Under the pieces are notes generated by a model. It was not told the origin of the DNA. It saw nothing but the letters and a program-made list of their open reading frames with translations, and searched no databases. Shown piece by piece: positions 4,512 through 43,038 of a DNA stretch of 64,000 nucleotides. The translations under genes were made by a program, and so were the position numbers. Numbering within the stretch: position 1 is the first letter of the stretch; each line of letters starts with the position of its first letter. The DNA lies in IMG/VR virus record IMGVR_UViG_3300009481_004294. The stretch is one strand, 5' to 3'. The DNA is from a virus.

Positions 4512-5932
4512 TGGCTCATTTAGGACAAATCGATAGAAGATTTCCAGGACAAGTGGTTTTCACACGATATGTTACAGAAAATGCTGACTGGAAAAAATTA
4601 AAGCTGAGAATAGAAAATGGTCAGGTTGCCGAAATGTTTGAAGAAACTAATAACGCATTAAACAGTATGAATGTTACTATTCAACCCAGAACAGACATAA
4701 TATTACTTTCAGAGAAATATAAAGAATTTGAAAGAAGAAAGTATGCTAATATTGAATATCAGAGAAAAAAAGGATATATATTAATTTCAAAAATAAGAAA
4801 ACCTACAGACAATCTTAATTCAGAAAGACCGCAAAAATTACAAATATTAGCAGAAGATTTTACAGAAAAAGGCGACAATGAAAAAATAACAGTACTTTCT
4901 AAAAAAGATGTTCCAGTAAAATTATTTAATACTTATGAAGATTTAAAAAAAAGTATTGTTTGGGGTTTAGATAATAAAATTAGTAATAATGATTATCTTA
5001 TAGAAAAAATAAAAACATATTTAGATAAAGATGATTTATCTGAAATTGATCTGAATGGTATTGATGATAGTCATATTGATGAACTAGGTGTTTATTTTGG
5101 TGAGATTTTAATAGGAATATTAGCATTTAAAAATCAGTTATCAGATACTTGTACTCCTTCTGATATGTTTGGAATTAATTTGAAATCTTTTAGTATACCG
5201 ACTGATCCTGCATTTAAACTTGTTGATAGTAGTTTGATATTTGATACAACTACTGTTAGCATATCGAGTAAATATGATAAGGGCTCCGCCGCATCATTTA
5301 TGTCGAATGTTCTTCCTTATGGAATGAAATATTATACTGGTTATAGAGATTGTTTTTTTAAAAAAATGTGTCGAGTTGCATCTAATATGGGATATACATC
5401 AGAACAAGTAGGAGCAAGTAGATTTAAATATTCAAAAAATATAACATTTGAAGTTGGATTAAGAACAGTATTAAAAATAAAAAAATCAATTGTACAAAAT
5501 ACAAATCATTCTATTTATGAAAGTATTCGAAAAGTCGCAATGAATCAGACTCTTTCTCCAAAAGAAAATCAAGAAATTGATGATGTAATAGTAGCAATAG
5601 AAGATTATTTTATAAAGAGAAAAACTTTCGATGGAAGAGAACAAGTTATACAAACAATAAGAAATAATTATCCCTTTACAATTACTTCTTTTTTTAATTA
5701 TTCTGTGGCGAGTGTATTAAATAATGATAGGTTATCAAGAAAATATGTTCACGAAATAATCGGTGGTAAAGATTTTTATCAAGCAAATTTAAATAAATCT
5801 AAATGGAGAAAAGGTATTATTGATATAAGAATGGTTTCTCCCAAATCTGCTACATTAAAAATATTAGGATCAATGTCAGGCGCTACAGATTTTACCGCAA
5901 AACAAGGTTTAGTAAATTACGAGTTAAAATAA
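4511..5932 (+). CDS. Hypothetical 473-aa protein, possible PD-(D/E)xK-type nuclease, between terS and terL
   Basis: GTG start overlaps the gp16 stop and its stop overlaps the gp17 start. YFGEI...IPTDPAFKLVDS...ISSK resembles a restriction-endonuclease-like core (by eye only). Confidence 0.4.
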   Translation: MAHLGQIDRRFPGQVVFTRYVTENADWKKLKLRIENGQVAEMFEETNNALNSMNVTIQPRTDIILLSEKYKEFERRKYANIEYQRKKGYILISKIRKPTDNLNSERPQKLQILAEDFTEKGDNEKITVLSKKDVPVKLFNTYEDLKKSIVWGLDNKISNNDYLIEKIKTYLDKDDLSEIDLNGIDDSHIDELGVYFGEILIGILAFKNQLSDTCTPSDMFGINLKSFSIPTDPAFKLVDSSLIFDTTTVSISSKYDKGSAASFMSNVLPYGMKYYTGYRDCFFKKMCRVASNMGYTSEQVGASRFKYSKNITFEVGLRTVLKIKKSIVQNTNHSIYESIRKVAMNQTLSPKENQEIDDVIVAIEDYFIKRKTFDGREQVIQTIRNNYPFTITSFFNYSVASVLNNDRLSRKYVHEIIGGKDFYQANLNKSKWRKGIIDIRMVSPKSATLKILGSMSGATDFTAKQGLVNYELK

Positions 5933-8028: not shown

Positions 8029-8036
8029 TATAAATA
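8029..8036 (+). promoter_or_regulatory. T4-type late promoter TATAAATA for gp18-gp19
   Basis: Exact TATAAATA in the intergenic region, followed by a GGAG RBS and the gp18 ATG. Confidence 0.8.
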
Positions 8037-15800: not shown

Positions 15801-17855
15801 GCTGGCTCTACAGGAAGTTCGGGAAGTGCTGGATCATCTGGTCGTGATGGTGTTTTTGGAGGAGCGGCTTTTGAATATGATTTTTCAAATACAGCATTTG
15901 TAGGAGCTACAAGTGATCCTGGTGCGGGTAAACTTAACGTAGGATTCGATAATGGATCTATTACTTTAGAGGATGATACTGGAAGTTTTATTTTAGAAAC
16001 AGAGTCGGATCTTTTATTAGAGGGAGGTTCTACACCTACTGATTTTTCTACAGTTAACAGAATTTCTATAAGCGAAACTGATGTAAATGGAACATCAACT
16101 GAAAGTTTTTTAAGTCAAGTTCAAACAGCAACATCTGCAATTAAAGGTCATGTAAGAATTCATCGAAAAACATATTCTGACCAATATGCAATGTTTACCA
16201 TTCATTATGTTACTAATAATACAGATTTTCAAGAAATAGAAGTTACAAAAGTTGGTGGTGAAAATGCATTTTTTGCTAATGATGAAGACATAGTTGTTAC
16301 ATTTGCAAGAACTGGTGATGCTGGAACATCTGGAACATCTGGATCATCTGGATTAACTTATGCTTCTTCTGGAAGTGCTGGCTCTGCAGGAAGTGCAGGA
16401 AGTTCTGGAACTGCAGGATCGTCTGGTCGTGATGGGGGTTCTTTTACTCATGAACAATCTTCAGCGGCATCTGTTTGGTTAATAAATCATACTTTAACAA
16501 AAAGAGTTATAAATGTTCAAGTTTGTGATGATGATTATAATGTAATTTATCCAGAATCTATTCAATTTACGGATTCAAATAATATAAAAATAGTATTTCC
16601 TACTGCAATAGCAGGATGGGCTACAGTAACGTTTGGAGAATCAACTTCTGGTACTTCTGGAACTGCAGGATCATCTGGAATAACTTATGCTTCTTCTGGA
16701 TCGTCTGGTTCTGCAGGAAGTGCTGGCTCTGCTGGAAGTGCTGGATCTGCTGGTTCTGCTGGAAGTGCAGGAAGTTCGGGAAGTGCTGGCTCTGCAGGAA
16801 GTGCTGGTTCATCTGGCTCTGCAGGAAGTGCTGGAAGTGCTGGAAGTGCAGGAAGTGCTGGCTCTTCTGGTTCTGCAGGAAGTGCTGGATCCGCAGGAAC
16901 TTCTGGAACTGCAGGAACTTCTGGACTAGATGGTAATTTTGGAGGAGCATCTTTTGAATATGATTTTGAAAATACAACATTTACAGGTGCATCAAGCGAT
17001 CCAGGTTCTGGTAAACTTGAAGTAGGTATTGATACTGGATCTGCACCAACTGATTTCTCTACAGTTAACAGAATTTCTATAAGCGAATTAGATGTAAATG
17101 GTACATCAACTGAGAGTTTTCTAGATCAAGTTGATGGTGCAACATCTGCAATTAAAGGTCATGTAAGAATTCATAAAAGATTTAATAGTGATCAATATGT
17201 AATATTTACAATTTCAGATGTTACTAATAATACAGATTTTCAAGAAATAGAAGTTTCAAAGATCGGAGGACAAACTGCATTATTTTCCGATGATGAAGAT
17301 ATAGTTGTTACATTTGCAAGAACTGGTGATGCTGGAACATCTGGAACTGCTGGAACTTCAGGAACTGCAGGAACTTCTGCTTCTGCTGGTTCTGCAGGAA
17401 GTGCTGGATCATCTGGCTCTGCAGGAACTTCTGGAACTACTGGTTCTTCAGGAAGTGCAGGAAGTTCGGGAAGTGCTGGATCGTCTGGCTCTGCAGGAAC
17501 TGCAGGATCCTCTGGATTTTTAAATCTAAATAATTCTGCAGAAGATCGTTTAATTTCTATTAATGCTGATACTGAATCTGGTGATGGAGAAACAAATTTA
17601 ACATTTGATGGAAATGAATTAAATGTAACTGGTAAAACTTTTTTGGTGGGTACAAGTGGAACAACTGGTTATATTCAAATGTCTCAAAGAGATGATGTTT
17701 CAGGAAATAAACCTACTTTGACTGCAGGTCAATCTGCAGTTTTTTCAAGTTCTTCGGGAGCAGGAGGAACAGGAATATATTTTAAACAAGGAACTGATGA
17801 TCCCGATGAATTGGTTTCACGCAAAAAAGCAATAACTTATGGATTAATATTCTAA
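12816..17855 (+). CDS. Giant collagen-like fibre protein 1 (1679 aa): N-terminal collagen and coiled coil, Gly-Ser-Ala/Thr triplet tracts, alternating globular modules A-B-A-B-A-B
   Basis: 20 classical G-X-Y triplets, long (GSA/GSS/GTS)n tracts, three ~70-aa (Y/F)xHxQ...W.I.H modules and three ~140-aa FGGA.F.Y...FARTGD modules. Confidence 0.8.
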   Translation: MKDDQKEPQDLDLSKVLATALAYTKKTLKKTKEELVVGIKEILDPVTGEKVRVLEIKGTEGSKGEKGEKGEQGEIGPVGERGEDGRIGPQGVQGPQGEQGETGPEGPEGEKGDPGDDAEVTRLEIEIEGIKKVVKEVSSKATQTAQKVAGGSGWGEGGGGGGASGIHGTHGTSGSAGSSGETHGTSGSSGVDGTFLGTHGTSGSAGSSGGTGSHGTSGSAGSSGSAGSSGSSGSTGTSGSSGLTYASSGSSGTAGTSGRDGGSYIHIQSSAQPVWLINHNLNTRPINILVVDSDYNVIYPESVQFIDSNTVKIIWPSSQAGFASITFGEASSGTSGTSGLTYASSGSAGSAGSAGSTGSAGSSGSAGSAGSSGSSGRDASSGSSGSSGTSGTSGVDGEQGDTGEGGTSGSSGTTGTHGSSGSSGTDGTSGTSGSDGTEGDTGPQGTGGTSGSAGSSGSAGSSGSSGEDGTSGSSGSSGEDGTSGSSGSSGSAGSSGTSGTAGTSGTSGTAGSSGIDGGFGGASFSYRYNTTQGTDDPGTGKIAFTLTSGTFTTPDQANRLRISDTDQDGTIIDSFLQTINDVAFSDPKGHLRIYDKDDPDEFMLYGINEFDTVNPSWYYVKVTYLDSSLTDFQNATELVATFARTGDSGTSGSAGSSGSAGSAGSAGSAGSAGSAGSAGSAGTAGSAGSSGSAGSSGLTYASSGSAGSSGLTFASSGSSGGTGSHGTSGTTGTSGSAGSTGSAGSAGSAGSSGQDGGSYIHNQESAASVWLINHHLGVRPLNTTVVNTDYDVIYPESIRFTDSRTVKLVFTSAVAGWCALTFGEGSSGTSGSSGTSGSSGSAGSAGSAGSAGSSGSSGSAGSAGSAGSSGWTYASSGSSGSAGSAGSAGSAGSAGSAGSAGSSGSAGSSGSAGSSGSAGSAGSAGSAGSAGSSGSAGSSGSSGTSGSSGSSGSAGSAGSAGSAGSAGSSGSAGSSGSAGSSGSAGSSGSAGSAGSAGSTGSSGSAGSSGRDGVFGGAAFEYDFSNTAFVGATSDPGAGKLNVGFDNGSITLEDDTGSFILETESDLLLEGGSTPTDFSTVNRISISETDVNGTSTESFLSQVQTATSAIKGHVRIHRKTYSDQYAMFTIHYVTNNTDFQEIEVTKVGGENAFFANDEDIVVTFARTGDAGTSGTSGSSGLTYASSGSAGSAGSAGSSGTAGSSGRDGGSFTHEQSSAASVWLINHTLTKRVINVQVCDDDYNVIYPESIQFTDSNNIKIVFPTAIAGWATVTFGESTSGTSGTAGSSGITYASSGSSGSAGSAGSAGSAGSAGSAGSAGSSGSAGSAGSAGSSGSAGSAGSAGSAGSAGSSGSAGSAGSAGTSGTAGTSGLDGNFGGASFEYDFENTTFTGASSDPGSGKLEVGIDTGSAPTDFSTVNRISISELDVNGTSTESFLDQVDGATSAIKGHVRIHKRFNSDQYVIFTISDVTNNTDFQEIEVSKIGGQTALFSDDEDIVVTFARTGDAGTSGTAGTSGTAGTSASAGSAGSAGSSGSAGTSGTTGSSGSAGSSGSAGSSGSAGTAGSSGFLNLNNSAEDRLISINADTESGDGETNLTFDGNELNVTGKTFLVGTSGTTGYIQMSQRDDVSGNKPTLTAGQSAVFSSSSGAGGTGIYFKQGTDDPDELVSRKKAITYGLIF
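12987..13166 (+). repeat. Classical collagen G-X-Y tract (20 triplets, GEK/GPQ/GPE)
   Basis: Runs GTE GSK GEK ... GDP GDD; counted from the translation. Confidence 0.9.
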
Positions 17856-20800
17856 TATGTCTATCGAAACAAATTTAATAGCAAATACAAATAGTGCAAC
17901 AGCCACTACAGTTTATACTTCATCAGGAGAGTCTGCAGTTACAACAATATTTTTTTGTAATACAGATTCTTCTGCTATTGATGTAACATGTTGGATTGTT
18001 CCTAATGGTGACACATTGGGAGATGAACACATGATAATGAAAGAATTAACAATAAATGCAACTGATACTTTTGCTTTTGGAAGTGAAAGAATTTTAATGG
18101 GAGCAAGCGATACTATTCAAGCAATCGCTGATACAGTAGATAAAGTTTCAGTAGTAATTAGCTATACGAGTATTTAATTAATGGCACTATTTCTTAAAGG
18201 CGAATACGCAGATTATAGTTTAAAAGAGAAAACAACTTCTGGTTCCGCTGGCTCTGCTGGATCTGCGGGGAGTGCTGGATCTGCAGGTTCTGCTGGTTCT
18301 GCAGGATCGTCTGGATTGACATATGCTTCATCTGGAAGCTCTGGCTCTGCGGGTTCTGCAGGGAGTGCTGGATCTTCTGGACAAGATGGTAGTTCTTTTG
18401 TTCATACTCAATCTTCAGCTTCACTTGTCTGGTTGATAACTCATGGTTTAGGAACTAGACCAGTAAATATAGAAGTTGTTGATGATAATTATAATGTTAT
18501 TATACCAGAATCTATTCAATTTATTGATGGAAATAATGTAAAAATAGTATTTACTTCTTCACAAGCAGGATATGCCGCCATAACTTATGGACAGGGTTCT
18601 TCTGGAACTTCTGGTTCTGCAGGAACTTCTGGTTCTTCGGGAATGGGTGGAACTGCTGGATCATCTGGATCTACTGGTTCTACAGGAAGTGCTGGCTCTG
18701 CAGGATCATCTGGCTCTGCGGGAAGTGCAGGAAGTTCTGGGAGTGCTGGTTCTTCTGGTTCTGCAGGAACTTCTGGAACTACTGGAACTTCTGGAACTGC
18801 AGGAACATCTGGACAAGATGGAAATTTTGGTGGTCAATCTTTTGAATATGATTTTGAAAATACAACATTTACAGGCGCCGCAAGTGATCCAGGTTCTGGT
18901 AAACTTGTAGTAGGAATTGATACTGGATCTGCACCTACAGATTTTTCTACAGTTGATAGAATTTCTATGAGTGAAGCTGATGTAAATGGTACATCAACTG
19001 AAAGTTTTCTAGATCAAGTTGATGGTGCAACATCCGCAATTAAAGGACATGTAAGAATATCGAAAAAATTTGATACAAGTACGTATGTAATGTTTACTAT
19101 CTCGGATGTTACTAATGATTCGGGTTTTCAAGAAATAGAAGTTTCGAAAATAGGAGGACAAACTGCATTATTTGATGATGATGAAGACATAATTGTTACA
19201 TTTGCAAGAACTGGTGATGCTGGAACTTCTGGAACATCTGGTTCTTCAGGAAGTGCTGGTTCTGCAGGATCATCTGGCTCTGCGGGAAGTGCTGGCTCAT
19301 CTGGATCCGCTGGCTCTGCGGGAAGTGCGGGTAGTGCTGGAAGTGCTGGTTCTGCTGGAAGTGCTGGCTCTGCAGGAAGTGCTGGTTCTTCGGGGGCAGG
19401 AGGAACACACGGAACTGCAGGTAGTGCTGGATCTGCTGGTTCATCTGGATCTGCAGGAAGTGCTGGCTCTGCGGGTTCTGCAGGAAGTGCTGGATCTTCT
19501 GGACAAGATGGCGGATCTTATATTCATACTCAATCTTCAGCTTCACTTGTCTGGTTTATACCTTATAATTTAAATACTAGGCCTGTAAATATAGAAGTTG
19601 TTGATGATAATTATAATGTAATTTATCCAGAATCTATTCAATATATTGATTCAAATAATGTAAAAATAGTATTTCCTACTACTCAAGCAGGATATGCGGC
19701 GGTAACTTTTGGTGAAGGATCGTCTGGATCATCTGGTTCGTCTGGATTGACTTATGCTTCATCTGGATCATCTGGTACTTCTGGATCATCTGGGAGTGCT
19801 GGTTCTTCAGGAAGTGCTGGATCTGCTGGTTCCGCTGGCTCATCTGGATCCGCTGGCTCTGCAGGAAGTGCTGGTTCATCTGGCTCTGCAGGAAGTGCTG
19901 GAAGTGCTGGAAGTGCAGGAAGTGCTGGCTCTGCAGGAAGTGCTGGCTCTGCTGGTTCTGCGGGCTCTTCTGGATACACTTATGCTTCATCTGGTTCATC
20001 TGGCTCTGCGGGAAGTGCTGGTTCTGCAGGATCATCTGGTTCGTCAGGAACTACTGGAACTTCTGGAACATCTGGTTCTTCAGGAAGTGCTGGTTCTGCA
20101 GGATCATCTGGCTCTGCGGGAAGTGCTGGTTCTGCTGGATCCGCTGGCTCTGCAGGAAGTGCTGGAAGTGCTGGTTCATCTGGTTCTGCTGGTTCTTCAG
20201 GAAGTGCTGGAAGTGCAGGAAGTGCTGGCTCTACAGGAAGTGCTGGATCCGCTGGCTCTGCAGGGAGTGCTGGATCATCCGGTCGTGATGGTGGATCTTA
20301 CATTCATACACAATCTACACCTGCAATTGTTTGGTTAATACCTTATAATTTAGGAACTCGACCTGTAAATATAGAAGTTGTTGATACTAATTATAATGTT
20401 ATTGTACCAGAATCCACTCAATATGTTGATTCTAATACTGTAAAAATAATTTTTCCCATTGCTCAAGCAGGATTTGCCGCAATAACTTTTGGTGAAGGAT
20501 CGTCTGGAACTTCTGGATCTTCAGGAACTTCTGGATCTTCAGGAACTTCTGGATCGTCTGGACAAGATGGAAACTTTGGTGGTGCATCTTTTCAATATGT
20601 TTTTGAAGATACTTCATTTACAGGATCAGCAAGTGATCCTGGTTCTGGAAGACTTGAAGTAGGTATTGATACTGGATCTGCACCAACTGATTTCTCTACA
20701 GTTAATAGACTTTCTATAAGTGAAACAGATTCAAATGGTGCCGATACTGAAAGTTTTCTAGATCAAGTTGATGCATCATCTTCAGCAATTAAAGGTCATA

Positions 20801-22210
20801 TAAGATTGGCCGCACTATTTGATGCTGGTCAATATGTAATGTTTACAGTTGGTGATCTTACGAATGCAGGAGATTATCAAGAAATAGAAGTTACAAAGAT
20901 TGGTGGACAAGACGCATTTTTTGCTGATGATGCTGATATACTTTTTACAGTTGCAAGAACTGGTGATGTTGGTACCTCAGGAACTTCTGGATCGTCTGGT
21001 AGTTCTGGATCTGCTGGCTCTGCGGGTTCTGCTGGAAGTGCTGGATCTGCTGGCTCTGCAGGAAGTGCTGGATCCGCTGGCTCTGCAGGAAGTTCTGGAA
21101 GTGCTGGCTCATCTGGCTCTGCAGGAAGTGCAGGTTCTGCAGGAAGTGCAGGAAGTGCAGGTACTGCTGGAAGTGCTGGAAGTGCTGGCTCTGCAGGAAG
21201 TGCTGGATCATCTGGTCGTGATGGCGGATCTTTTCTTCATACTCAATCTACACCTGCACTTGTTTGGTTAATAAGTCACGCTTTAAATATTAGACCTCTA
21301 AATGTAGAAATTACTGATACTAATTTTAATATAATTATTCCAGAATCAATTCAATTTATTGATTCTAATACTGTAAAAGTTATTTTTCCCACTACTCAAG
21401 CAGGATATGCGGCACTTACTTTTGGTGAAGGATCGTCTGGAACTTCTGGTTCATCTGGATTGACTTATGCTTCATCTGGTTCTTCTGGAACTGCAGGAAC
21501 TACTGGCTCTGCGGGTTCATCTGGATCGTCTGGTTCTGCTGGAAGTGCTGGTTCTGCAGGGAGTGCTGGCTCTGCTGGAAGTGCTGGAAGTGCTGGATCG
21601 TCTGGTTCTGCAGGAAGTTCTGGTTCTGCTGGCTCTGCAGGATCGTCTGGTTTAACTTATGCTTCATCTGGTTCATCGGGTTCTTCTGGAGAAACTGGAA
21701 CTGCTGGATCGTCTGGTTCTGCAGGAAGTTCTGGTTCTGCTGGCTCTGCAGGAAGTGCTGGATCATCTGGATCTGCAGGAAGTACAGGAAGTGCTGGCTC
21801 TGCAGGAAGTGCTGGATCGTCTGGTTCTGCAGGAAGTTCTGGTTCTTCAGGAAGTGCAGGGAGTGCTGGAACATCTGGAACAGATGGAACTGATGGAAAT
21901 GCTGGCGGTGCTTACATTCATACTCAATCTTCAGCCGCACTTGTCTGGTTGATAACTCATGGTTTAAATACTAGACCTTTAAATATCGAAGTTGTTGATG
22001 GTAATTATAATGTTATTATACCAGAATCTACTCAATATATTGATTCTAATACTGTAAAAATAATTTTTCCCACTACTCAAGCAGGATATGCTGGTCTCAC
22101 ACACGGAGAAGGATCTTCTGGAACATCTGGTACTTCTGGACTAACTTATGCTTCATCTGGATCTGCAGGAAGTGCTGGATCTGCAGGGACTTCTGGTGTT
22201 TCTGGAAGTC
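13300..22210 (+). repeat. Coding 9-bp-period repeats (ggntcngcn / ggnagtgcn) encoding Gly-Ser-Ala/Ser/Thr triplets, interspersed with globular modules
   Basis: Visible in both DNA and protein across both fibre genes; third codon positions vary. Confidence 0.9.
17857..18177 (+). CDS. Small virion structural protein (fibre-associated)
   Basis: 106 aa, beta-rich; TTVYTS...FCN...L..GDTIQA..D pattern; sits between the two fibre genes. Confidence 0.6.
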   Translation: MSIETNLIANTNSATATTVYTSSGESAVTTIFFCNTDSSAIDVTCWIVPNGDTLGDEHMIMKELTINATDTFAFGSERILMGASDTIQAIADTVDKVSVVISYTSI

Positions 22211-22911
22211 TTCCAGCAGGAGGTGCTGGTCAAATTCAATATTATGCAACATCATCTACTCTTGGAGCGTATTCTGGATTTCTTGTAGATGATGTTACAA
22301 CTCCAACTCAGATAGCCATGAATTTTCCAATTTACTCTTCAAGTGGTGCAACTGGATTAGCTAATCTTAAAGTACATGGAACATCTGGACTTGATGGAGC
22401 AACTACAGTAGGGGGGACTTTAACTACAGTAGATATTCTTCCTTCTGCAAATAATACGAGTGATGTTGGTTCAGCAACAATGGTTTATAATGACATGTAT
22501 GCAGTTACATTTAACGGAAGAGCAACTTCAGCAAACTGGTCTGACTTGGCCGAGAGATATGAATCAGATAAAATATATGAACCAGGAACTGTTTTAGCAG
22601 TAGGAGGAACAAAAGAGGTCACATTATATCAAGTTGACATGCCTTATGCTGGTGTTGTTTCAGATAAACCTGGATTGAGAATGAATGATGGTATGATACA
22701 AAGAGAAAATGAATTTATGCTTTTTATTTGTTTGAAAGGAAGAATATTAGTTAAGATTGAGGGAGGATGTAATAAAGGAGATTTTATTATAGCTTATAAA
22801 GATGGAACTGGAAAAGTTATAACTAAATATGAATATGAACCACACAAACATGATTTAATTGGAATAGCATTAACTAATAGTAATGGTGATTTTGTAGAAG
22901 TAAAAGTATGA
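18181..22911 (+). CDS. Giant fibre protein 2 (1576 aa): Gly-Ser-Ala tracts, modules A-B-A-A-B-A-A, C-terminal chaperone/autocleavage-like domain
   Basis: Same A (x5) and B (x2) modules as fibre 1. C-terminal DLAERY...YEPGTVL.VGG...GVVSDKPG...LKGRI.VK resembles intramolecular-chaperone (peptidase G2-like) fibre tips. Confidence 0.8.
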
Positions 22912-24430: not shown

Positions 24431-25024
24431 ATGGCTGGACCCTTAGCATGTCCTACAAATTTGACTAATCTTGCTTCTCAATTAAATGATTTAGTTGAGC
24501 AGTCTGATATTAATACAATGAGAACTTCTATCAATGATGAATTGACTAGAAGATCCATAACTAATGAAACTTGGGATCCTTATGCCGATCCAATCGCCGC
24601 ATCAATATTTGATGAAATACAACTCGCAGTTGAATATAATTTAGGAGGAACTACACCAACAACAGGTGTACCAATTCAACCAACTGTTTCTGCAGGTGAT
24701 CTAATTTTAGCATCTCAAATTGAAACGTTAGAATCTAATCTTGATGAATGGAAAGTTTTATGCGTATGCAATTGTAATTTCTGTCCATGTAATTGTGACT
24801 TTTGTCCTTGTAACTGTGATTTCTGCCCATGTAATTGTGACTTTTGTCCTTGTAACTGTAATTTTTGTCCGTGTAATTGTAACTTTTGCCCATGTAATTG
24901 CAATTTTTGTCCATGTAACTGTAATTTCTGTCCTTGTAACTGTAATTTCTGTCCTTGCAACTGTAACTTTTGCCCTTGTAATTGTAACTTCTGTCCGTGT
25001 AACTGTAACTTCGGTCCAAAATAG
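24431..25024 (+). CDS. Cys-rich heptad-repeat protein; putative radical-SAM substrate (RiPP-like precursor or virion protein)
   Basis: AGGA RBS; ~110-aa N-terminal region, then CV plus 11 x CNC(N/D)FCP plus CNCNFGPK; directly upstream of three rSAM genes. Confidence 0.85.
   Translation: MAGPLACPTNLTNLASQLNDLVEQSDINTMRTSINDELTRRSITNETWDPYADPIAASIFDEIQLAVEYNLGGTTPTTGVPIQPTVSAGDLILASQIETLESNLDEWKVLCVCNCNFCPCNCDFCPCNCDFCPCNCDFCPCNCNFCPCNCNFCPCNCNFCPCNCNFCPCNCNFCPCNCNFCPCNCNFCPCNCNFGPK
24767..25021 (+). repeat. 12 tandem 21-bp coding repeats (tgY aaY tgY RaY ttY tgY ccN)
   Basis: Read codon by codon. Units 2-4 have Asp; all other variation is synonymous except the terminal GPK. Confidence 0.95.
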
Positions 25025-25033
25025 AGAAATAAT

Positions 25034-26320
25034 ATGACTCAATCACACAACTTAGAAACTGTAGCTCCAAATCAAATGTATACACCACCAAGTACAGGGT
25101 GGTCTCCTCCACAACAGCAACAGAAGAATAATGGAGGAATGCCTGGCTTTAATCCAATGCAGAGTTTTAATTTCGATGTAAACGTAACAAGTGAATGTAA
25201 TCTTGCTTGTACTTACTGTTCAGAAGGAGAATCTTGTGGTCTTTCTTCTGCTTTTCAAGAGCCCACAGAAATGACTCCTGTGCAAGTAGTTGAAGCAGTA
25301 AGAACCTTAGATTATAACAAATATAAAGATGTAAATGTTTATTGGTGGGGAGGAGAACCTTTTGCCAATTTTCATTTTACAAGTACTTGTATGAAATTAT
25401 TGAAAGATGATAAAAAAGTTAATTTCATGTATTATACAAATGGTACTTATCTGAAAAAATATAAAAAACAACTTAAAGGTATTAGAGATATGCTTGGTAA
25501 GAGAATTGATTATCCTTGGCAAGATAGATTACATATACAAATTTCTTTTGATGGTGAGCCTATTAATACAAAAGAAAGAAGAACAAAAAAAGGCGAAAGT
25601 AAAAAATTATCGGCATCTGTTCTTAAAATATATGATGAGTTGAAAAAAGATGGATTTTCTGTAGGAATGAAACCTACTATCTCATCACGAAATTTTAAAT
25701 ATCTTTTTGAAGTTTGGAAGTGGCATCATGATCGAGGAGAACATTATGGACCTACTCCTGATACCCATAGTGTGGATCCAGATAGACCTGATGGCGCAGT
25801 TCCAGAAGAAGAATTTGCACAACACATGAAAGATTTAAGAGTGAATTTAATGAAAATTGTCAAATATAGCATGGAGAATAAAATAGAATTAGCACAATCT
25901 TTTAGATGGTTTAAGAGAGAAAAACAAAATTGTTCAGCAGGAATAAATTATCTATCATTGGATCTTGATGGTAAAACTTACCCATGTCATGGTTGTATGT
26001 ATCGACAAAGGGAAGATCATCATAGAGGAGATATTAAATCTAATACTTTACAAAAACTTGTTGATGAAACAACTGCGACATATCAATCATATTTAAATGA
26101 TTTTAGAACAGATGGTACCTTAGCATGTAATAGTTGTACTGCAGATTTTTGTTTAAAATGTCCAGCGGGATCTTTTGATGCATCAGATACAAAATATCCA
26201 GAAAAAACAGTAGGTGAAAAATGGCAAGATCATACTGCAAATCATCAATTATGTACTGTATGGAAAACCTTAGAACCCGTATCTAAAGCATATAGACAAT
26301 TAACAGGACATCAATTATGA
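25034..26320 (+). CDS. Radical SAM/SPASM enzyme 1
   Basis: CNLACTYC (CxxxCxxC), GGEP, SFDG, SPASM-type CSAG...DG..YPC and CNSC...CLKC...LC. Confidence 0.92.
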   Translation: MTQSHNLETVAPNQMYTPPSTGWSPPQQQQKNNGGMPGFNPMQSFNFDVNVTSECNLACTYCSEGESCGLSSAFQEPTEMTPVQVVEAVRTLDYNKYKDVNVYWWGGEPFANFHFTSTCMKLLKDDKKVNFMYYTNGTYLKKYKKQLKGIRDMLGKRIDYPWQDRLHIQISFDGEPINTKERRTKKGESKKLSASVLKIYDELKKDGFSVGMKPTISSRNFKYLFEVWKWHHDRGEHYGPTPDTHSVDPDRPDGAVPEEEFAQHMKDLRVNLMKIVKYSMENKIELAQSFRWFKREKQNCSAGINYLSLDLDGKTYPCHGCMYRQREDHHRGDIKSNTLQKLVDETTATYQSYLNDFRTDGTLACNSCTADFCLKCPAGSFDASDTKYPEKTVGEKWQDHTANHQLCTVWKTLEPVSKAYRQLTGHQL

Positions 26321-26532
26321 TAATAGGTGATCCTAAAAAGTGCCCAATAGCACTTTCTGATGGATGTACAACTTGTAGTAAAATTTATAGTGGGGAAGAT
26401 AGAGTGGAATTTGGTAATTGTCAAGAAGAACCTATTAAAATTAATTTTCATATGAAATTTAAAGATCAATTAACTGAGCAACAAAGAAAACAATCTGGTA
26501 GAGATCCTTGGAAGGAATTACAATATGCCTGA
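26317..26532 (+). CDS. Small Cys-containing hypothetical protein
   Basis: 71 aa, overlaps both rSAM1 and rSAM2; C-x7-CTTC...C. Confidence 0.55.
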   Translation: MIIGDPKKCPIALSDGCTTCSKIYSGEDRVEFGNCQEEPIKINFHMKFKDQLTEQQRKQSGRDPWKELQYA

Positions 26533-27751
26533 ATATCATTTAGAAGTGTCAGTAACAGAAAAATGTAATCTTGGTTGTCCATATTGTTATGTTGCAAATC
26601 AAGACAAATTTATGACACCTGAAGTGTTTGATAAAGCATGGCCTGAATTTATAAAGTTAGTAGATAGATCAAAGGCTGATGCTAGAGGAAGATTTCATTT
26701 AACATTTTTTGGTGGTGAACCTCTTTTAAATATGCCATTAATTAAACACGCTACAAAAAAATTAAGAGGAGGCGAACATTCTGATAGACTTCATGCATTA
26801 TCAATTATTTCAAATATGACATTAATAAATGATGAGATTGCTGATTGGTTAGAAGAAAATCGAGTAGGAATAAGTTGGAGTTTTGATGGAATATCTTCAA
26901 ATGAGTCTAGACCTGTAATTAAAAATATGGGAGAAAATAAAGGATATTCAAGTGTGTTTGAAATGTATAATGAAAAACAGCATTTGATTAGAAGACTGAC
27001 AAAATATAGTAAGACATGTAAAGTGATGATTTTTCCTGCTAATGTTGATGCAATGACAGAAAATTTTGAATTTTTAGTTGATTTTGGAATTCCTTGTCCA
27101 GATTTTTCTATTGTAAGAGATGATATTTGGTCTATTGATGATTTACAACATTTTAGAAGAGAGGTTAGAAGATTAGCAGATAAACAAATAGAATATCTTT
27201 CTAAAGGAATTTTAGCAGTTAATGGAATGTTTAATTTACCATTACAAGATATGTTATTGGGTATTACTAAAAACAAGAGACCATTTGGATGTTTTGCAGG
27301 AGTGAGCGGTTCAGTTATGTCAGTAGAAGGAGAATTTTATCCATGTGCTAGATTTGGATCTAAAAAAGTTTTACCTATGAAAGGAGATGAATATAATTTT
27401 TCATATTTTCAACATATTTTTAATCCTAAAACATATAATAAATGTAAGGGGTGTGATCTATATAAAGTATGTAATGCAGGTTGTACATATTCGCAGATAA
27501 GAAATGGAAATACACCTGTAGATTCTATTTGTGAATTATTTCATATGTACTATGATGAAGCAATAAGAATTGTTGAAGAGTGTAAAGATTTTCCAACATT
27601 TCAAGATTATATTGGAAAATTATTTAAGGGTCGAGGAGACTTTTATACTCCTTTTGAAATAGAGGAAAAGAAAGATTTATTTTCTATGCTAGAAGTTTCA
27701 CAGATGAAACATAGTGAACATCAATCATTTGTGGAATCATTACCAGCATGA
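26525..27751 (+). CDS. Radical SAM/SPASM enzyme 2
   Basis: CNLGCPYC, FFGGEPLLN, SFDG, SPASM CFAG...G..YPC.RF and CKGC....CNAGC...IC. Confidence 0.93.
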   Translation: MPEYHLEVSVTEKCNLGCPYCYVANQDKFMTPEVFDKAWPEFIKLVDRSKADARGRFHLTFFGGEPLLNMPLIKHATKKLRGGEHSDRLHALSIISNMTLINDEIADWLEENRVGISWSFDGISSNESRPVIKNMGENKGYSSVFEMYNEKQHLIRRLTKYSKTCKVMIFPANVDAMTENFEFLVDFGIPCPDFSIVRDDIWSIDDLQHFRREVRRLADKQIEYLSKGILAVNGMFNLPLQDMLLGITKNKRPFGCFAGVSGSVMSVEGEFYPCARFGSKKVLPMKGDEYNFSYFQHIFNPKTYNKCKGCDLYKVCNAGCTYSQIRNGNTPVDSICELFHMYYDEAIRIVEECKDFPTFQDYIGKLFKGRGDFYTPFEIEEKKDLFSMLEVSQMKHSEHQSFVESLPA

Positions 27752-28416
27752 TATTTGATAAACCTGTAATAGATCCAAGAGTTAACCAAGGAGATGGACC
27801 ACCAAAATATATTCCTGGTCAATTATTAGATAAAAAAGATTTAACAGTATATCAACATAAAGATACTACAATGGTTGTTTTAGATTATGATCAAAAAATT
27901 AATGTTGATGTGATGAATGAAGTTTTATATAGAACTATAGAGGGTGGAGCAATAAGAAAAAATGAATATGTAATTATAGTATCTAAAAAACAATTAAATA
28001 GAAAAATGTTTAGAAATGTAATAGATAAAATTCTATATTCACAAGATTTGAGATATGATTATATGTCAAGTCTTCCAAAGAATTTACATAATAATGTAAT
28101 AGATTTTAAAGATACTAAAGAATTAACGGGGGACTTAAATAAATCTACATACGAAGAAGAAGGCACTTTAAGTTGGGAATTACTTAGTCCGGTTGAACAA
28201 GGTTGTATAATATTTGAACAATTTTATGGTGATGATCCTGAAATTGTCGCAGGTAAAAATATAAGTGCTGAAGAATGGATATCTGCAAATAGAAATGTTT
28301 GGCATCTTGTAGATAGAGCAACAGATGAACAGAGAAAAGAGTGGTTAGAAAAGTTCTATAGATATAAAAAAGTGTATGATACATTTCCAACCGCACCACT
28401 TATTACGGAGCCATAA
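27748..28416 (+). CDS. Hypothetical protein in the rSAM cluster
   Basis: 222-aa ORF with ATGA and TAATG coupling on each side. Confidence 0.6.
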   Translation: MIFDKPVIDPRVNQGDGPPKYIPGQLLDKKDLTVYQHKDTTMVVLDYDQKINVDVMNEVLYRTIEGGAIRKNEYVIIVSKKQLNRKMFRNVIDKILYSQDLRYDYMSSLPKNLHNNVIDFKDTKELTGDLNKSTYEEEGTLSWELLSPVEQGCIIFEQFYGDDPEIVAGKNISAEEWISANRNVWHLVDRATDEQRKEWLEKFYRYKKVYDTFPTAPLITEP

Positions 28417-37808: not shown

Positions 37809-38575
37809 AAATCATTTCAAAATATAATAATACCTGGATGGCATATTTTGGATTTCAAATTTTATTTCATATATTAACTGTTGTTGGATTGTTATATTCA
37901 TCATGGCATTGGCTGTGGTTGTCTTTAGTGGGCATTATTTTTTTCAGACATATTGGTGTAGAAATTGGCGCCCATCGATATTTTGCACATAAAAGTTTTA
38001 AAGCAAAACCTTGGGCTAAAAAATTAATGGCCATTTGTGGACTTTTTGCATATGGAGGAACACACTATGCTTGGATTCCTTTTCATAGACTACATCATCA
38101 AAAATCAGACACTAAATTGGATCCCCATTCACCACATCACATGAGTTTCATAGATGTTTATTTTACTAACTGGCGAGTTGAAGTGTTAGATGTTAAATTG
38201 TATCAAGATTTAATAGAAGATAAATTTTTACAATTTTTACATAGAAATTATTTAATTATAGTAACTACACCATTAATTTTATTTGCATTGATAGATTGGA
38301 GAATATCTGTTTTTCTATTTGCTATTCCAAGTGCATTTGCACTTCATTCTGGGGGGCTGGTAAATTCTATAGGGCATTTATATGGATATAGAAATTTTGA
38401 TGATACAAACGATAAAAGTCGAAATTCTACATGGGTGAATATACTAACTTTAGGAGAAGGTCTGCAGAATAATCATCATGCACATCCTGAAAGATATAAT
38501 TTTAAAATGTCTAATAGATGGTATGAGACAGATTTTTTGAACGTTTTTCTAATAGAAAAGTTTTTAAAGGCGTGA
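37805..38575 (+). CDS. Membrane fatty-acid desaturase 3
   Basis: HRYFAH / HRLHH / QNNHH. Confidence 0.9.
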   Translation: MKIISKYNNTWMAYFGFQILFHILTVVGLLYSSWHWLWLSLVGIIFFRHIGVEIGAHRYFAHKSFKAKPWAKKLMAICGLFAYGGTHYAWIPFHRLHHQKSDTKLDPHSPHHMSFIDVYFTNWRVEVLDVKLYQDLIEDKFLQFLHRNYLIIVTTPLILFALIDWRISVFLFAIPSAFALHSGGLVNSIGHLYGYRNFDDTNDKSRNSTWVNILTLGEGLQNNHHAHPERYNFKMSNRWYETDFLNVFLIEKFLKA

Positions 38576-39438
38576 TAATGTTTAAATATGAGATGACACG
38601 AAATGCAATTATTATTGGGATGATGATTCATTTATCTTTTCATGTTTTATTAGTATATGGAATAATAACTTTTTCTTTACATTGGTTGTGGTTAACATTA
38701 ATAGGAACCATTTTAATTCGACATATAGGAACTGAAATAGGCGCTCACAGGTATTATACTCATCAAAGTTTTAAAGCAAATCCGTGGGCACAGTGGCTTA
38801 TGTCTATTTTATTTGTATGGAATTATGGAGGTAGTATGTTAGCATGGTGTCCTGGACACAGTTATCATCATAGATTTTCTGATAGTAAACATGATATACA
38901 ATCTCCACATTATATAAAAAAATTTAAAGATTTTGTTAGAGTTGTTTTTCCTGCAGTATTCGCATATGAAAAATTATATAACGATGAAATTGATAAAATG
39001 AGAATGAAAAGATACATGGAATGGTTTCATGAAAAGAGGGGTTTTATGGAATTAATGAAGAATAAACCAGCGAGATTTACTCATAATTATTATTGGTTGA
39101 TTGTATCTCTTCCAATTATAATTTTACCAATAATTGATATTCGTTTATTAATCTTTCTTATAGCAATACCATGTGTAATTAATTTTTGGTCTTTGGCTCT
39201 ACTAAATTTTTTTGGACATATTTCTACTATTGGAAGTTATAAAAATTTCGAAACTGATGAGTGGGGTAACAAGGAACGTTCAGTTAATACTCTATGGTTA
39301 AATATATTTACTGGGGGAATGGGACTACAAAATAATCACCATCATAATTCAAGAGCCTATAATTTTAAAATGAATGATAAATGGCATGAAACAGATTTTT
39401 TGAATGTATTTTTAATAGAAAAATTTTTAAAGGTTTAA
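38572..39438 (+). CDS. Membrane fatty-acid desaturase 4
   Basis: HRYYTH / HSYHH / QNNHH. Confidence 0.9.
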   Translation: MIMFKYEMTRNAIIIGMMIHLSFHVLLVYGIITFSLHWLWLTLIGTILIRHIGTEIGAHRYYTHQSFKANPWAQWLMSILFVWNYGGSMLAWCPGHSYHHRFSDSKHDIQSPHYIKKFKDFVRVVFPAVFAYEKLYNDEIDKMRMKRYMEWFHEKRGFMELMKNKPARFTHNYYWLIVSLPIIILPIIDIRLLIFLIAIPCVINFWSLALLNFFGHISTIGSYKNFETDEWGNKERSVNTLWLNIFTGGMGLQNNHHHNSRAYNFKMNDKWHETDFLNVFLIEKFLKV

Positions 39439-39439
39439 C

Positions 39440-40279
39440 ATGTTCAAATTTACAGCAAATAGGTTTGCAGTTATTATGATTTCTATTATTCATACGTTAT
39501 TTCATATATTAACTGTATATGGATTAATAACTTTTTCTTTACATTGGTTATGGTTATCTTTTATTGGTGTTATATTATTACGACATATCGGTACAGAAAT
39601 AGGAAATCATCGATATTTTTGTCATAGGAGTTTTGAAGCAAAACCTTGGGCAGAATGGCTTATGATGATTGGATATGCATTTTCGTATGGAGGAAGTAAT
39701 ATAGCATATGCTATAGGTCATAGATGGCATCATGCTACATCTGATACTGAAAAAGATCCAATTTCTCCTCATAACATTAAGAATGTTAAAGATGTTTTTA
39801 GAATTATAACTCAAACTTTAGGAGAACTTCAACAGGAAGAACGTAAAGATTGGAATATTTTTAGAAAAAGTGAAAATAAATTTTGTAAAAAATTATTTAA
39901 AAATAAAGTAGCAAGATTCAATCATGAATATTATTGGTTAATAGCACTTTCTCCCATTGTAATTTTATCAATAATCGATATTCGTTTGTTAATATTTTTT
40001 ATAGCATTACCTTGTGTTATAACTTTTTGGTCTGGAATGTTAGCACATTTTTTAGGACATGTAATGTTATTTGGTTGTTATAGAAATTATGAAACTACAG
40101 TTGATGATCTATCGGTAAATAATCCATGGTTAAATATAATAACAGGAGGATTAGGAACATTACATAATAATCATCATGCACATCCTGAAAGATATAATTA
40201 TAAAATGTCTAATAGATGGTATGAGACAGATTTTCCCAATGTGTTTTTAATAGAAAAGTTTTTAAAACATGATAGATAA
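39440..40279 (+). CDS. Membrane fatty-acid desaturase 5
   Basis: HRYFCH / HRWHH / HNNHH. Confidence 0.9.
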   Translation: MFKFTANRFAVIMISIIHTLFHILTVYGLITFSLHWLWLSFIGVILLRHIGTEIGNHRYFCHRSFEAKPWAEWLMMIGYAFSYGGSNIAYAIGHRWHHATSDTEKDPISPHNIKNVKDVFRIITQTLGELQQEERKDWNIFRKSENKFCKKLFKNKVARFNHEYYWLIALSPIVILSIIDIRLLIFFIALPCVITFWSGMLAHFLGHVMLFGCYRNYETTVDDLSVNNPWLNIITGGLGTLHNNHHAHPERYNYKMSNRWYETDFPNVFLIEKFLKHDR

Positions 40280-41063
40280 CCTTAATAAATTATTTGTTAA
40301 AGATTTTCAAATTAGTATATTACAATATGTGTGGATTTATACCTTTCCTATCATATCTGTATTGGGAATAATATATTCGTCATGGCATTGGTTGTTTTTA
40401 ACATTAGTGGGTATAATTTTGTTTAAAGATATTGGAGGCGAAATAGGAGTCCATAGATACTGGACACATAATTCATTTAAAGCGAAACCTTGGGTACCAA
40501 AATTATTTTCAATTTGTACAATTTTATGCTATGCTGGTAGTCCTCTTACTTGGTCATATGTTCATAGACATCATCATGAGCATTCTGATACTGAAAAGGA
40601 TGTACACTCTCCCCACCACAGCAAATGGTATCATATCTGGAGAGGATATTGGGATTTTTCAAAAATAGAAAAGTTTGATCCTAGATTCGTAGCAGATTTG
40701 TTGAAAGATGAATCAATAAAATTTGCACATCGATATCATTTATTGATTCAAATATGCGTAATCATAATAACTGTGTCTATAGATTGGAGAATATTTGTAT
40801 TTTTATTTGCTCTTCCTAGTGCAATAACATTTTGGTTTGGATCTATAGCTGTTAATATGATGAGTCATTTGTGGGGATATCGTAATTTTGAAACACCTGA
40901 TAATTCAAAAAATAATATACTTGCTTGTATTCTTGTTTCTTCTGGAGGATTACAAAACAATCATCATTATAATCCTTCTTCATATAATTTTAAAATGTCA
41001 GATAGATGGTATGAACAAGATATGAAAAATGTGTTTCTTATTGAAAGATTTTTTAAAGCATGA
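40269..41063 (+). CDS. Membrane fatty-acid desaturase 6
   Basis: HRYWTH / HRHHH / QNNHH. Confidence 0.9.
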   Translation: MIDNLNKLFVKDFQISILQYVWIYTFPIISVLGIIYSSWHWLFLTLVGIILFKDIGGEIGVHRYWTHNSFKAKPWVPKLFSICTILCYAGSPLTWSYVHRHHHEHSDTEKDVHSPHHSKWYHIWRGYWDFSKIEKFDPRFVADLLKDESIKFAHRYHLLIQICVIIITVSIDWRIFVFLFALPSAITFWFGSIAVNMMSHLWGYRNFETPDNSKNNILACILVSSGGLQNNHHYNPSSYNFKMSDRWYEQDMKNVFLIERFFKA

Positions 41064-41824
41064 TTAATTATTATATTAAATCTAAGCGAACTCCCTATTT
41101 TTTCTTAATTAATTTAATTGCTCATTTAGCAATTATACCCGCAATTCTTTATGGCGAATGGTGGATGTGGATATTAAGTTTGATATGGTGGCAGTGGATA
41201 GGATGTACAGCATATACTACTGGGTATCATAGGTATTATACTCATAAAAGTTTTAAAGCACCGCTTTGGTATGATTATTATTTTAATTTTTTTTCTTTAT
41301 TTGGTAATCCAGGACCAGTTCTTATATGGAGCGGAACACATAAATTACACCACAAATATAGTGATACGGAATTAGATCCACATAGTCCTAAACATAAAGG
41401 ATTTTGGAATGTGTGGACAAGTTTTTGGGGAATGGGAGTGTTTACAATAGATCCTCCTACAAGAGAAGATTTAAAAGATTGGTTAGAAGAAACAAAAGAT
41501 CCTATTGCTAAATGGTTTTATGATAATTATCTTTCTTTAACAGTTATTATTATGATTGTATTGTTATTCATGGGTCCTTGGTTTTTTATATTTGGTTTTT
41601 GTATTCCTACATGTTTAATACTTCATGGTTCGGGTATTATTAATGCATTTACTCATAAGAATGGAAAACCAGAGAATAAAAATTTAGTGGCATTGATAAC
41701 CGCTGGAGAAGGATGGCATTTGAATCATCATGAAGATCCATCTAATTATACGACAAGAAAAGAGTCGTATAAATGGTGGCAAGTTGACTTAAATGGTATA
41801 TGGATCAATTTAATTAAAATATAG
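41060..41824 (+). CDS. Membrane fatty-acid desaturase 7 (most divergent, closest to the canonical GEGWHxNHH type)
   Basis: HRYYTH / HKLHH / AGEGWHLNHH. Confidence 0.92.
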   Translation: MINYYIKSKRTPYFFLINLIAHLAIIPAILYGEWWMWILSLIWWQWIGCTAYTTGYHRYYTHKSFKAPLWYDYYFNFFSLFGNPGPVLIWSGTHKLHHKYSDTELDPHSPKHKGFWNVWTSFWGMGVFTIDPPTREDLKDWLEETKDPIAKWFYDNYLSLTVIIMIVLLFMGPWFFIFGFCIPTCLILHGSGIINAFTHKNGKPENKNLVALITAGEGWHLNHHEDPSNYTTRKESYKWWQVDLNGIWINLIKI

Positions 41825-41875
41825 GCTCGATATATATTAACACCAGAGAATGGAAACGAAAGTTCCGCTTTGGAC

Positions 41876-41948
41876 AGGGGTGTAGTTTAATTAAAACGGC
41901 CAACAGGGTGTTGGGAAGTTGTGAGTGTAAATCTCGCCACCCCGACCA
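41876..41948 (+). tRNA. Atypical tRNA-like RNA with GGG (Pro) anticodon and encoded CCA
   Basis: Manual cloverleaf. Acceptor aGGGGTG/CACCCCg (6 bp plus A1.G72), discriminator A, CCA. D stem GTTT/AAAC with AATTA loop. Anticodon arm CCAA-CAGGGTG-TTGG. T stem GTGAG/CTCGC with TGTAAAT loop. Confidence 0.6.
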
Positions 41949-41968: not shown

Positions 41969-42775
41969 ATGATTACAATTAATACATGGAAAAATAATTA
42001 TATTATTGCACATGATCCTCATTCAAAAATTGAAATAGATTCTTTGAATAAATTATTTGTTTCATTAGTAGATAAAATTGGGGGTAGTGATCAAGATTCT
42101 ATTGAACGAGCAAAGAGAAAAGGTGAATATTTATTAATTGCTGGACATGCAAATATAAAATATGAATTGTTAGCAAGAACTTTTCAAGATTTTCTTAAAC
42201 AATTTGAAATTGGTTATGATTGGAGAGGTGAAAGTTCTGCTGATAATATATCATTATTTAATGAATTAAATATTTTACCAACAGAAGATCCTTCTACAGG
42301 TGCTATAGGTGGAGGAGTGCCTGATGATAATCAGAATGAAATAGAATTAGGTATTCTTCCATTGGTCACTATTCTCAATACATTTGATGGAATTAGAACT
42401 TTTGGTTCATGTGAAGGACACTATGTTAAGTCTGATTTTCTCAATGCGTATATATCATGGACTGCTTGCAATATAAATGGACTAAATTATTCTACATTTC
42501 TTTTAAAAAATGCAATTAATGGTGTTTGGGAAAAAAGAAAATTAAATGATGATGAGAATTTTAATATAAATCAAATAATTAATAGAATTACATTAAGTTT
42601 TAATACAGGATATTGGAAGCCTGCACGTTTAAGGACTGCTCCATTACCAGGTGAAAATTTTTATCATTTTCGTTTTGATTATGAATTTAAATTTCGATCA
42701 CTTGTTTTTAATATAATAAATGATATTGCTGAACATATTATAAATGAAAAATATGAATTGTCAAAGGAGATATAA
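41969..42775 (+). CDS. Hypothetical protein with TFGSCEGH motif
   Basis: ATG at 41969 is preferred because the track's GTG at 41921 lies inside the tRNA-like element. Confidence 0.6.
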   Translation: MITINTWKNNYIIAHDPHSKIEIDSLNKLFVSLVDKIGGSDQDSIERAKRKGEYLLIAGHANIKYELLARTFQDFLKQFEIGYDWRGESSADNISLFNELNILPTEDPSTGAIGGGVPDDNQNEIELGILPLVTILNTFDGIRTFGSCEGHYVKSDFLNAYISWTACNINGLNYSTFLLKNAINGVWEKRKLNDDENFNINQIINRITLSFNTGYWKPARLRTAPLPGENFYHFRFDYEFKFRSLVFNIINDIAEHIINEKYELSKEI

Positions 42776-43038
42776 TGGCTAAAATTAGTGAAATATCTAA
42801 TGAGTTGAAGAAAAAACTTGAAGACACAATGCAGGGTGGATATACAGGAGGCTGTCAAGAGTGGATTAATTTAATTGCAACTGCTGAACCGTCAGAAAAT
42901 GAAAAAGAAGCAAATATGTTAAAAGCGTTAAATGATTTAACAACACAATTTACAGCAACGATGTCTGGAAATGCACCAGGTGATCTGACAATTTGGTATC
43001 AAGAATTAAACTTTGCTATGAATGAATATTTGACTTAA
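42775..43038 (+). CDS. Hypothetical small protein
   Basis: 87-aa ORF, TAATG coupling. Confidence 0.55.
   Translation: MAKISEISNELKKKLEDTMQGGYTGGCQEWINLIATAEPSENEKEANMLKALNDLTTQFTATMSGNAPGDLTIWYQELNFAMNEYLT

Follow-up and report, generated by a model that had tools for sequence, protein, structure and literature searches.

What is a tRNA-Pro-like element with an encoded CCA end doing in a phage contig that holds no ordinary tRNA genes? The element lies in IMG/VR virus record IMGVR_UViG_3300009481_004294, of which a stretch of 64,000 nucleotides (the window) was analyzed. This stretch comes from a 76.9-kb contig of a marine T4-like phage. The major capsid protein shares 64% identity with its counterpart in Pelagibacter phage HTVC008M, so a streamlined marine bacterium is a plausible host. 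The element is found 3′ of an acyl carrier protein (ACP)/type III polyketide synthase (PKS) island, after its seventh and last desaturase-like gene, and is followed by two open reading frames (ORFs) and then by a 227-aa ORF starting at 43046 (Table 1). Our results indicate that the RNA and the product of the latter gene, an SGNH-fold protein, belong to a real, conserved, widespread and apparently undescribed RNA–protein module, in which a common structural tag (the handle) is combined with tRNA-like bodies (payloads) of different identities. The element is identical in nine further assemblies of the same phage population, so the RNA is not an assembly error.

The full RNA occupies positions 41842–41948 and consists of a 31-nt handle hairpin and a tRNA-Pro-like body. 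A reading of this DNA from its letters alone (the sequence-only reading) had described a cloverleaf with encoded CCA and the G72, A73 and GG anticodon bases, a D loop without GG, a T loop without TTC, an A1·G72 mismatch, neither U33 nor a purine at 37, and an anticodon arm able to zip to a 3-nt loop, and every one of these features was located where it had been placed. The acceptor stem (41876–41882/41938–41944) begins with A1·G72, and the C at position −1 could pair with G72 if A1 bulges; the D arm (41885–41897) has a 5-nt loop; the GGG anticodon (41906–41908) is flanked by A33 and U37; the T stem contains the pairs G49–C65, U50·G64 and G51–C63 and carries the loop TGTAAAT; A73 and the CCA fill 41945–41948. 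An upstream GNRA hairpin, also described in that reading, is present, but it starts at 41843 instead of 41851, and an outer stem of 6 bp encloses an interior made up of GG with a bulged A (41852–41854), a short inner stem and CC (41865–41866). The box immediately upstream of the RNA (Table 1) is a putative late promoter: of 29 leaders of this kind, 16 have a TATAAATA- or TAAATA-like box no more than 15 nt upstream, and the exact TATAAATA precedes structural genes of the window at 8029, 10272 and 45974.

Tool-based detection, proposed in the sequence-only reading as a check, gave a divided result: ARAGORN missed the RNA by default and found it at 90% of its threshold, Rfam at gathering score returned no match in the window, and in nine relatives Rfam recognized a generic tRNA only, leaving the handle unmatched. 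A strict-geometry cloverleaf was obtained once in the window and in none of 20 Markov-simulated windows, and the GC content of the tRNA body is 49%, against 32% for the window. The folding energy is unremarkable (z −1.6); the RNA is considered real because it is conserved with covariation.

Relatives carrying the RNA were located via neighbouring proteins. Among ten Pro-type copies, 99.2% of cells pair, compared with 39–54% when the partners are slid, and the covariation that had been suggested as a second check was evident as double-sided, compensatory changes at 13 of 26 pairs, although many of these stem from one split between two clades and are not independent events. The outer stem of the handle is 100% paired, with double changes in four of its six pairs. 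In all six close relatives the RNA is better conserved than the partner gene (82–94% versus 66–91% identity to the window copy). Such compensatory conservation means that the RNA is not a pseudogene, and the earlier option of a decaying pseudo-tRNA is refuted. The GNRA tetraloop, which had been singled out and was considered as a key element, is not conserved; the conserved feature is a GG-bulged A–purine … pyrimidine–CC motif.

The pattern of change suggests what has been selected. G35, G36, G72 and A73, the chief determinants of bacterial prolyl-tRNA synthetase (ProRS) (PMC9976931), are invariant in 13/13 Pro-type loci, whereas base 34 is G, U, A or C and U33, near-invariant in elongator tRNAs (PMC5041475), is kept once (L110); selection therefore appears to act on charging and not on codon reading. 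The T loop of these loci measures 5 to 7 nt, its triplet being TGT in the window and TGC in L012, with TAC, TCC, TTT or shortened loops in other relatives. Decoding by the window RNA is unlikely, and the proposal that it is chargeable but does not decode is strongly supported by this selection pattern. Scans with exact T-loop patterns were discarded, as they yielded chance matches, ordinary tRNA-Pro genes or tRNA-end-like fragments.

Across loci, the RNA tracks the 43046 gene family rather than the PKS/desaturase cluster. In L031, L035 and L045, the PKS, the desaturases and the TYW3-like ORF that follows the RNA in the window are present, and neither the RNA nor a 43046 homologue occurs in the fetched DNA. 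A tagged tRNA-like RNA was detected near a 43046-family gene in 30 of 31 discovery loci, usually less than 80 nt away, on either side and either strand. ARAGORN called 271 tRNAs in and around these loci; 14 carry the leader, 13 of them no more than 71 nt from the gene and one at 1.3 kb, and the other 257 lack it. When motifs fixed in advance were applied to new loci, 22 of 32 scored within 78 nt, nine more contained clear variants by eye and L133 contained none; after collapsing near-duplicates, 14 strict cases, five by eye and one absence remained (19/20). The background of the motif scan was 5 loose hits per 495 kb of control, and two spurious hits lay ~1.9 kb from the gene. The linkage holds among proteins only ~30% identical, and next to two very distant proteins (E 3e-24 and 5e-10) the RNA directly follows the stop codon (2/2). 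Cis-regulation of the downstream gene was rejected, given that the side and orientation of the RNA vary.

Several loci show individual arrangements. Tandem SGNH-like paralogues in L057 (9300–10708) share one Pro-type RNA (11939–12047) 1.3 kb off, and the RNA of L049 (5884–5987, minus strand) is antisense, divergent from the SGNH-like gene and overlapped by the final codons of an ORF at 5345–5926. The SGNH-like ORF of L066 (7470–8213) runs into the RNA (8184–8257), and the same is seen in L078 and L085/L086/L093; the stop codon is then located inside the tRNA or handle, and tRNA excision would produce a stop-less mRNA, a possible feedback link.

The structure model of the 227-aa protein (predicted local distance difference test score 85.7) resembles SGNH/GDSL esterases and acyltransferases. 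VIA-align superposed it on the SGNH esterase 3hp4 (Z 11.1, root-mean-square deviation 3.3, 148 aligned residues), nearly all of the best 50 rows being SGNH/GDSL; further matches were viral SGNH models (template modeling (TM) score 0.60, E 7e-6) and atlas entries (TM 0.53–0.65). The family comprises 154 clusters at 50% identity, most members having 210–310 aa, and was seen only on phage-like contigs; the partner protein has no Pfam family and no PDB sequence match, and limited-sensitivity searches of GTDB genomes and INPHARED phage records found homologues of neither RNA nor protein. In an alignment of 50 proteins, S9, E47, R48, K54, K55, D80 and R144 are invariant, Ser9 lying in the block-I G-x-S motif with G7 in 49/50; H165 and H66 (47/50, after the block III strand) are nearly invariant, and position 44, tentatively assigned to block II, is Gly in 25/50 and Cys in 22/50.

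The handle exists in two architectures. In type A it is a 5′ leader located 0–2 nt (rarely up to 4) before the payload tRNA, with the same layout in 29 distinct leaders. Type B RNAs have no leader; their T arm reads GGAGG/CCCCC and their acceptor stem is only 6 bp, and in 17/17 RNAs the T-arm motif is followed by an acceptor 3′ strand of 6 nt, matching the leader. Both types share a 6-bp stem, one unpaired 3′ base and a helix with the GG-bulged A, and the payload CCA of type A is positioned at the base of the 6-bp stem, the place taken in type B by that RNA's own CCA; a protein gripping the handle could reach the 3′ end in either case. Intermediates are seen in L074 and L136, where a type-B tRNA without CCA is joined to a payload, so the leader is most likely descended from a type-B tRNA. 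The payload of L136, a tRNA-Pro(AGG) with A33, shows descent from a C1–G72 tRNA-Pro. The CCA ending the leaders of L085/L086/L093 was not counted as an intermediate, as it may be an outer-stem by-product.

Payload identities, assigned by eye against the determinant table of PMC9976931, cover Pro, Gly, Ala, Ser-like, Val, Ile, Leu, Thr, Asn, Phe-like and Tyr-like types. The occurrence of Asn-, Phe- and Tyr-like payloads led us to drop the idea of a restriction to small aliphatic amino acids. Gly-type RNAs combine U73 with UCC, ACC or CCC and mostly have G33; Ala-type RNAs have G3·U70 and an expanded or shrunken anticodon arm; Ser-type RNAs have G73, a long arm and variable shrunken loops. Type-B RNAs of L084, L102, L111, L125, L069, L071 and L076 display Tyr-like (GUA, long arm) or Phe-like (GAA) anticodons with an unexpected U73 or C73; their identity is mixed and their charging uncertain. 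U33 is present in 15/47 tagged RNAs versus 168/176 ordinary tRNAs of the same loci, so the loss of decoding features is a strong trend, not a universal one. ARAGORN labels Ser-like tagged RNAs as SeC (selenocysteine), Arg, Met or Lys (L067 2235–2320, L068 8192–8277, L077 10868–10956, L079 10940–11028), and such mislabels (SeC, Arg, Met, '???') may inflate the counts of odd tRNAs in phage annotations.

Payload identity is interchangeable. One 17-row group of the protein tree contains the type-A Pro copies along with Val, Ile and Gly types (support 93/92, with the inside of the group unresolved), and elsewhere types A and B are interleaved. The proteins of L086 and L093 are 97.8% identical and their payloads unrelated; in L062/L063, a single gene is flanked by a Val-type and an Ala-type RNA.

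An ester-handling Ser together with an RNA selected to bear an aminoacyl ester makes tRNA-dependent acyl transfer the simplest reading. That the SGNH protein moves an amino acid, loaded onto the RNA by host synthetases, to an acceptor strikes us as an even call; the wider proposition, that a new class of SGNH-fold tRNA-dependent aminoacyl transferases exists in aquatic T4-like and jumbo phages, with the amino-acid specificity set by an exchangeable, host-charged, handle-tagged tRNA, falls slightly short of even. We hypothesize a two-part phage module of tagged RNA and SGNH protein. The RNA would be made as its own late transcript, as the promoter-like box and free orientation suggest, and host ProRS would charge the Pro-type RNA, in line with the selection on G35, G36, G72, A73 and CCA. 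Having lost U33, the D/T-loop elbow and the 1–72 pair and carrying the leader, the RNA would be kept off the ribosome and probably also from EF-Tu and RNase P; the leader would be retained, since in synthetic constructs RNase P is blocked by a hairpin that adjoins +1 (PMC8925977). The protein would bind the handle, a mimic of a 6-bp acceptor stem plus T arm, with the aminoacyl-CCA of the payload placed where the CCA of single-tRNA type B members lies. Ser9 would then take the aminoacyl ester and hand it to an acceptor, as the catalytic Ser of DltD takes D-Ala from an O-ester donor and passes it on (PMC12148441). The acceptor may be a hydroxyl or amine of the virion or cell envelope (glycan, lipid) made late in infection, and a payload swap would change the amino acid.

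A number of observations weigh against this transferase model. The block-V catalytic His is absent, N202 (48/50) being followed by G/A/N/C with no His before the last helix, and in block III a His replaces the Asn, the blocks having been assigned from sequence and secondary structure only. A signal peptide is not evident by eye, unlike in envelope SGNH transferases, and no neighbouring gene recurs as a candidate acceptor. For the SGNH-like genes of L065 (9989–10837) and L133 (3001–3720), the fetched DNA shows no tagged RNA, which may have been lost or be encoded in another part of the genome. Among the RNAs, about 11/47 tagged copies pass all simple tests for canonical features, and the window copy has lost G37 and C1:G72, which are among the E. 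coli Pro determinants (PMC9976931). E. coli pre-tRNAs hisR and serV with 5′ extensions of at least 8 nt are poorly charged; leuX with 6–22 nt leaders is 90% chargeable (PMC7049720).

The absent block-V His, along with the invariant basic residues R48, K54, K55 and R144, would also suit a protein that binds the tagged RNA and reads or hydrolyses its aminoacyl ester without making a product, i.e., a charging sensor or deacylase tuning late infection. We regard this as unlikely, but as the alternative that best survives: interchangeable payloads (L086/L093, two in L062/L063) fit a sensor, and the OSK domain of Oskar is an RNA-binding, non-enzymatic SGNH fold (PMC10792757). However, Oskar has Asp at the nucleophile position, whereas Ser9 is kept in the phage proteins throughout; no effector domain is fused to them, and a private deacylase would run a futile cycle.

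Less probable still is that the handle serves as an RNA antitoxin for a toxic SGNH protein, or that the charged RNA decoys host tRNA-targeting defence enzymes, charging merely stabilizing its 3′ end. Type III toxin–antitoxin systems place tandem RNA repeats upstream of an endoribonuclease toxin. The tight one-gene, one-RNA mobile cassette, found in unrelated contexts with an RNA acting in trans in any orientation, favours an antitoxin or decoy role, yet the window holds one handle-plus-cloverleaf, with one or two per locus on either side or strand, there is no repeat array, and the protein has an SGNH and not a nuclease fold. The orphan genes of L065 and L133 speak against an antitoxin as well; a decoy for anticodon nucleases should retain a canonical loop, whereas the loops are deformed, and a decoy needs no fixed partner gene.

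The sequence-only reading had offered, among other options, an aminoacyl donor for the neighbouring pathway, i.e., a prolyl donor dedicated to the ACP/type III PKS/desaturase genes. The RNA and SGNH gene do stand at the end of the PKS island in five close relatives, desaturases lie within 6 kb in 10/30 loci, and the SGNH protein could acylate a lipid product in the window lineage. Still, the islands of L031, L035 and L045 lack both RNA and SGNH-like gene, most RNA loci have no PKS in the fetched DNA, including Pro-type ones (L049, L051, L057, L058), and we judge this version improbable. That reading was borne out in part overall; it overlooked that the hairpin serves as a shared tag and that a partner gene lies 1.1 kb downstream.

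A tRNA-like processing signal (t-element), at which RNase P/Z cuts a late message or frees the hairpin, is very improbable: the RNA overlaps the SGNH ORF end in several type-B loci (L066, L078), but it is often antisense to its neighbours (L049, L051, L058, L060, L062, L106, L129), conservation holds for anticodon bases 35/36 and not for the elbow read by RNase P, which is lost, and a +1-abutting hairpin blocks that enzyme (PMC8925977). We give an equally slight chance to a decaying pseudogene or an unusual but functional decoding tRNA-Pro escaping the host's anticodon nucleases, for despite the full cloverleaf, the CCA and the nearly canonical copies of L070, L072 and L110, the RNAs show A33 in place of a base near-invariant in elongators (PMC5041475), pyrimidine 37, T loops of 5 to 7 nt and, among close relatives, every one of the four bases at position 34, CCC accounts for 67/621 Pro codons of the window, and covariation excludes decay.

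For the proposed transferase, one precedent is provided by the staphylococcal non-proteogenic tRNA-Gly species, which serve the Fem transferases FmhB, FemA and FemB; according to the same source, S. aureus and S. epidermidis were the only species in which dedicated non-ribosomal tRNAs had been detected (PMC7826273). As in that system, an extra tRNA is apparently kept chargeable and poorly used by the ribosome, and D/T-region recognition elements may serve a partner enzyme; the T-loop triplet is TGT or TGC in the window and L012 but differs in other relatives. The weak staphylococcal T stem (A49–U65, U50–A64, A51–U63) and Gly identity are not matched by the window RNA, which has its own T-stem pairs and Pro identity. 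Unlike the staphylococcal species, the RNAs described here are phage-encoded, span about ten amino-acid identities and carry a portable handle hairpin, and the partner has an SGNH fold, not that of Fem/GNAT proteins.

The protein shares the SGNH fold and block-I Ser with DltD, PatB, OatA and AlgX (PMC12148441, PMC10792757), and a Ser accepting an aminoacyl O-ester, as suggested for the phage protein, is a feature of DltD specifically. Known SGNH acyltransferases, however, use acyl-Tyr peptide donors fed by MBOAT proteins and not tRNA, and keep the block-V Asp/His; the phage family lacks this block-V pair, and no MBOAT or membrane anchor was seen. Like Oskar OSK, it is an SGNH fold lacking the catalytic triad, and OSK binds RNA (PMC10792757, PMC7250577); unlike OSK, with Asp in place of Ser and insect mRNA as its ligand, the phage family keeps the Ser and has a dedicated tRNA-like partner. 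The arrangement resembles Ro60/TROVE with tRNA-like Y RNA in jumbo phages, where the gene for an RNA-binding protein adjoins an RNA of two modules, a stem bound by the protein and a tRNA-like part (PMC7824862), but the fold differs and the phage tRNA module keeps matched synthetase identity sets and the CCA. With bacterial tRNA-Pro (RF00005) the window RNA shares the cloverleaf, G35, G36, G72, A73 and CCA, differing in its lack of U33, purine 37, G18G19, TTC and the 1–72 pair and in the attached handle.

Neither handle, protein family nor their pairing is described in Rfam or in the literature searched, which included few subscription journals, and the main text of PMC10690425, covering 10,006 candidate viral RNAs, does not describe the handle or the pairing. 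No SGNH enzyme using aminoacyl-tRNA is reported in that literature. For a class of phage tRNA genes overlooked or mislabelled by annotation tools, our analysis proposes a function outside translation that can be tested. If the transferase model is correct, a 30-nt handle recruiting one enzyme to any payload tRNA would constitute a natural orthogonal acyl-delivery device, a portable RNA tag making any tRNA a ribosome-independent acyl carrier, and L086/L093 would supply a natural pair of near-identical enzymes whose sole difference is the payload. Should the transferase step prove wrong, the RNA–protein pairing is still a new system to be explained.

Table 1. Features at and around the tagged RNA (positions in the window).
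Feature	Position	Strand	Description
ACP/type III PKS island	31997–41824		ACP, TauD-like, SDR, type III PKS, AcpS, 2-oxoglutarate oxygenase, seven desaturases
Late-promoter-like box TATATATT	41831–41838	+	Two mismatches to T4 late promoter TATAAATA; 4 nt 5′ of the RNA
Handle hairpin	41842–41873	+	6-bp outer stem 41843–41848/41868–41873, 3x1 internal loop
tRNA-Pro-like payload	41876–41948	+	Keeps G35, G36, G72, A73, G49, CCA; without C1:G72, G18G19, U33, purine 37, TTC
Two intervening ORFs	41969–43038	+	268 aa (TYW3-like lead) and 87 aa; context only
SGNH-fold protein, 227 aa	43046–43729	+	Genomic partner of the RNA, from model, conservation and co-occurrence

The two intervening ORFs follow the PKS cluster and not the RNA, being present without it in L031, L035 and L045 and absent between RNA and SGNH gene in L012. 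The 268-aa ORF (41969–42775) has an invariant F-G-S-C-E-G-H motif and a weak resemblance to TYW3/DUF6919; its homologues sit in the PKS island at every fetched locus, one of them (P0009) with an additional PF00381 (HPr) domain. It was considered as the partner of the RNA on a weak fold lead and rejected, as the gene goes with the PKS cluster and is also found where the RNA is missing. The RNA is overlapped by a long ORF with a GTG start at 41921, most likely a miscall; the majority of homologues start at an ATG matching 41969. Related PKS islands (L031, L032, L045, L047) differ in content, with FabA-like, Asp/Arg hydroxylase and ring hydroxylase genes.

Two further regions of the window stand out. 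At 24431–30052, a 197-aa ORF with ~11 C-terminal repeats of the Cys-rich heptad C-P-C-N-C-N/D-F is followed by three radical-SAM-like genes (25034, 26525, 28676), an arrangement resembling a precursor and maturases of the type known from ribosomally synthesized and post-translationally modified peptides. At 12816–22911, two genes of 1679 and 1576 aa with Gly/Ser/Ala-rich repeats, probably tail-fibre-like, lift the local GC content to 43–45%.
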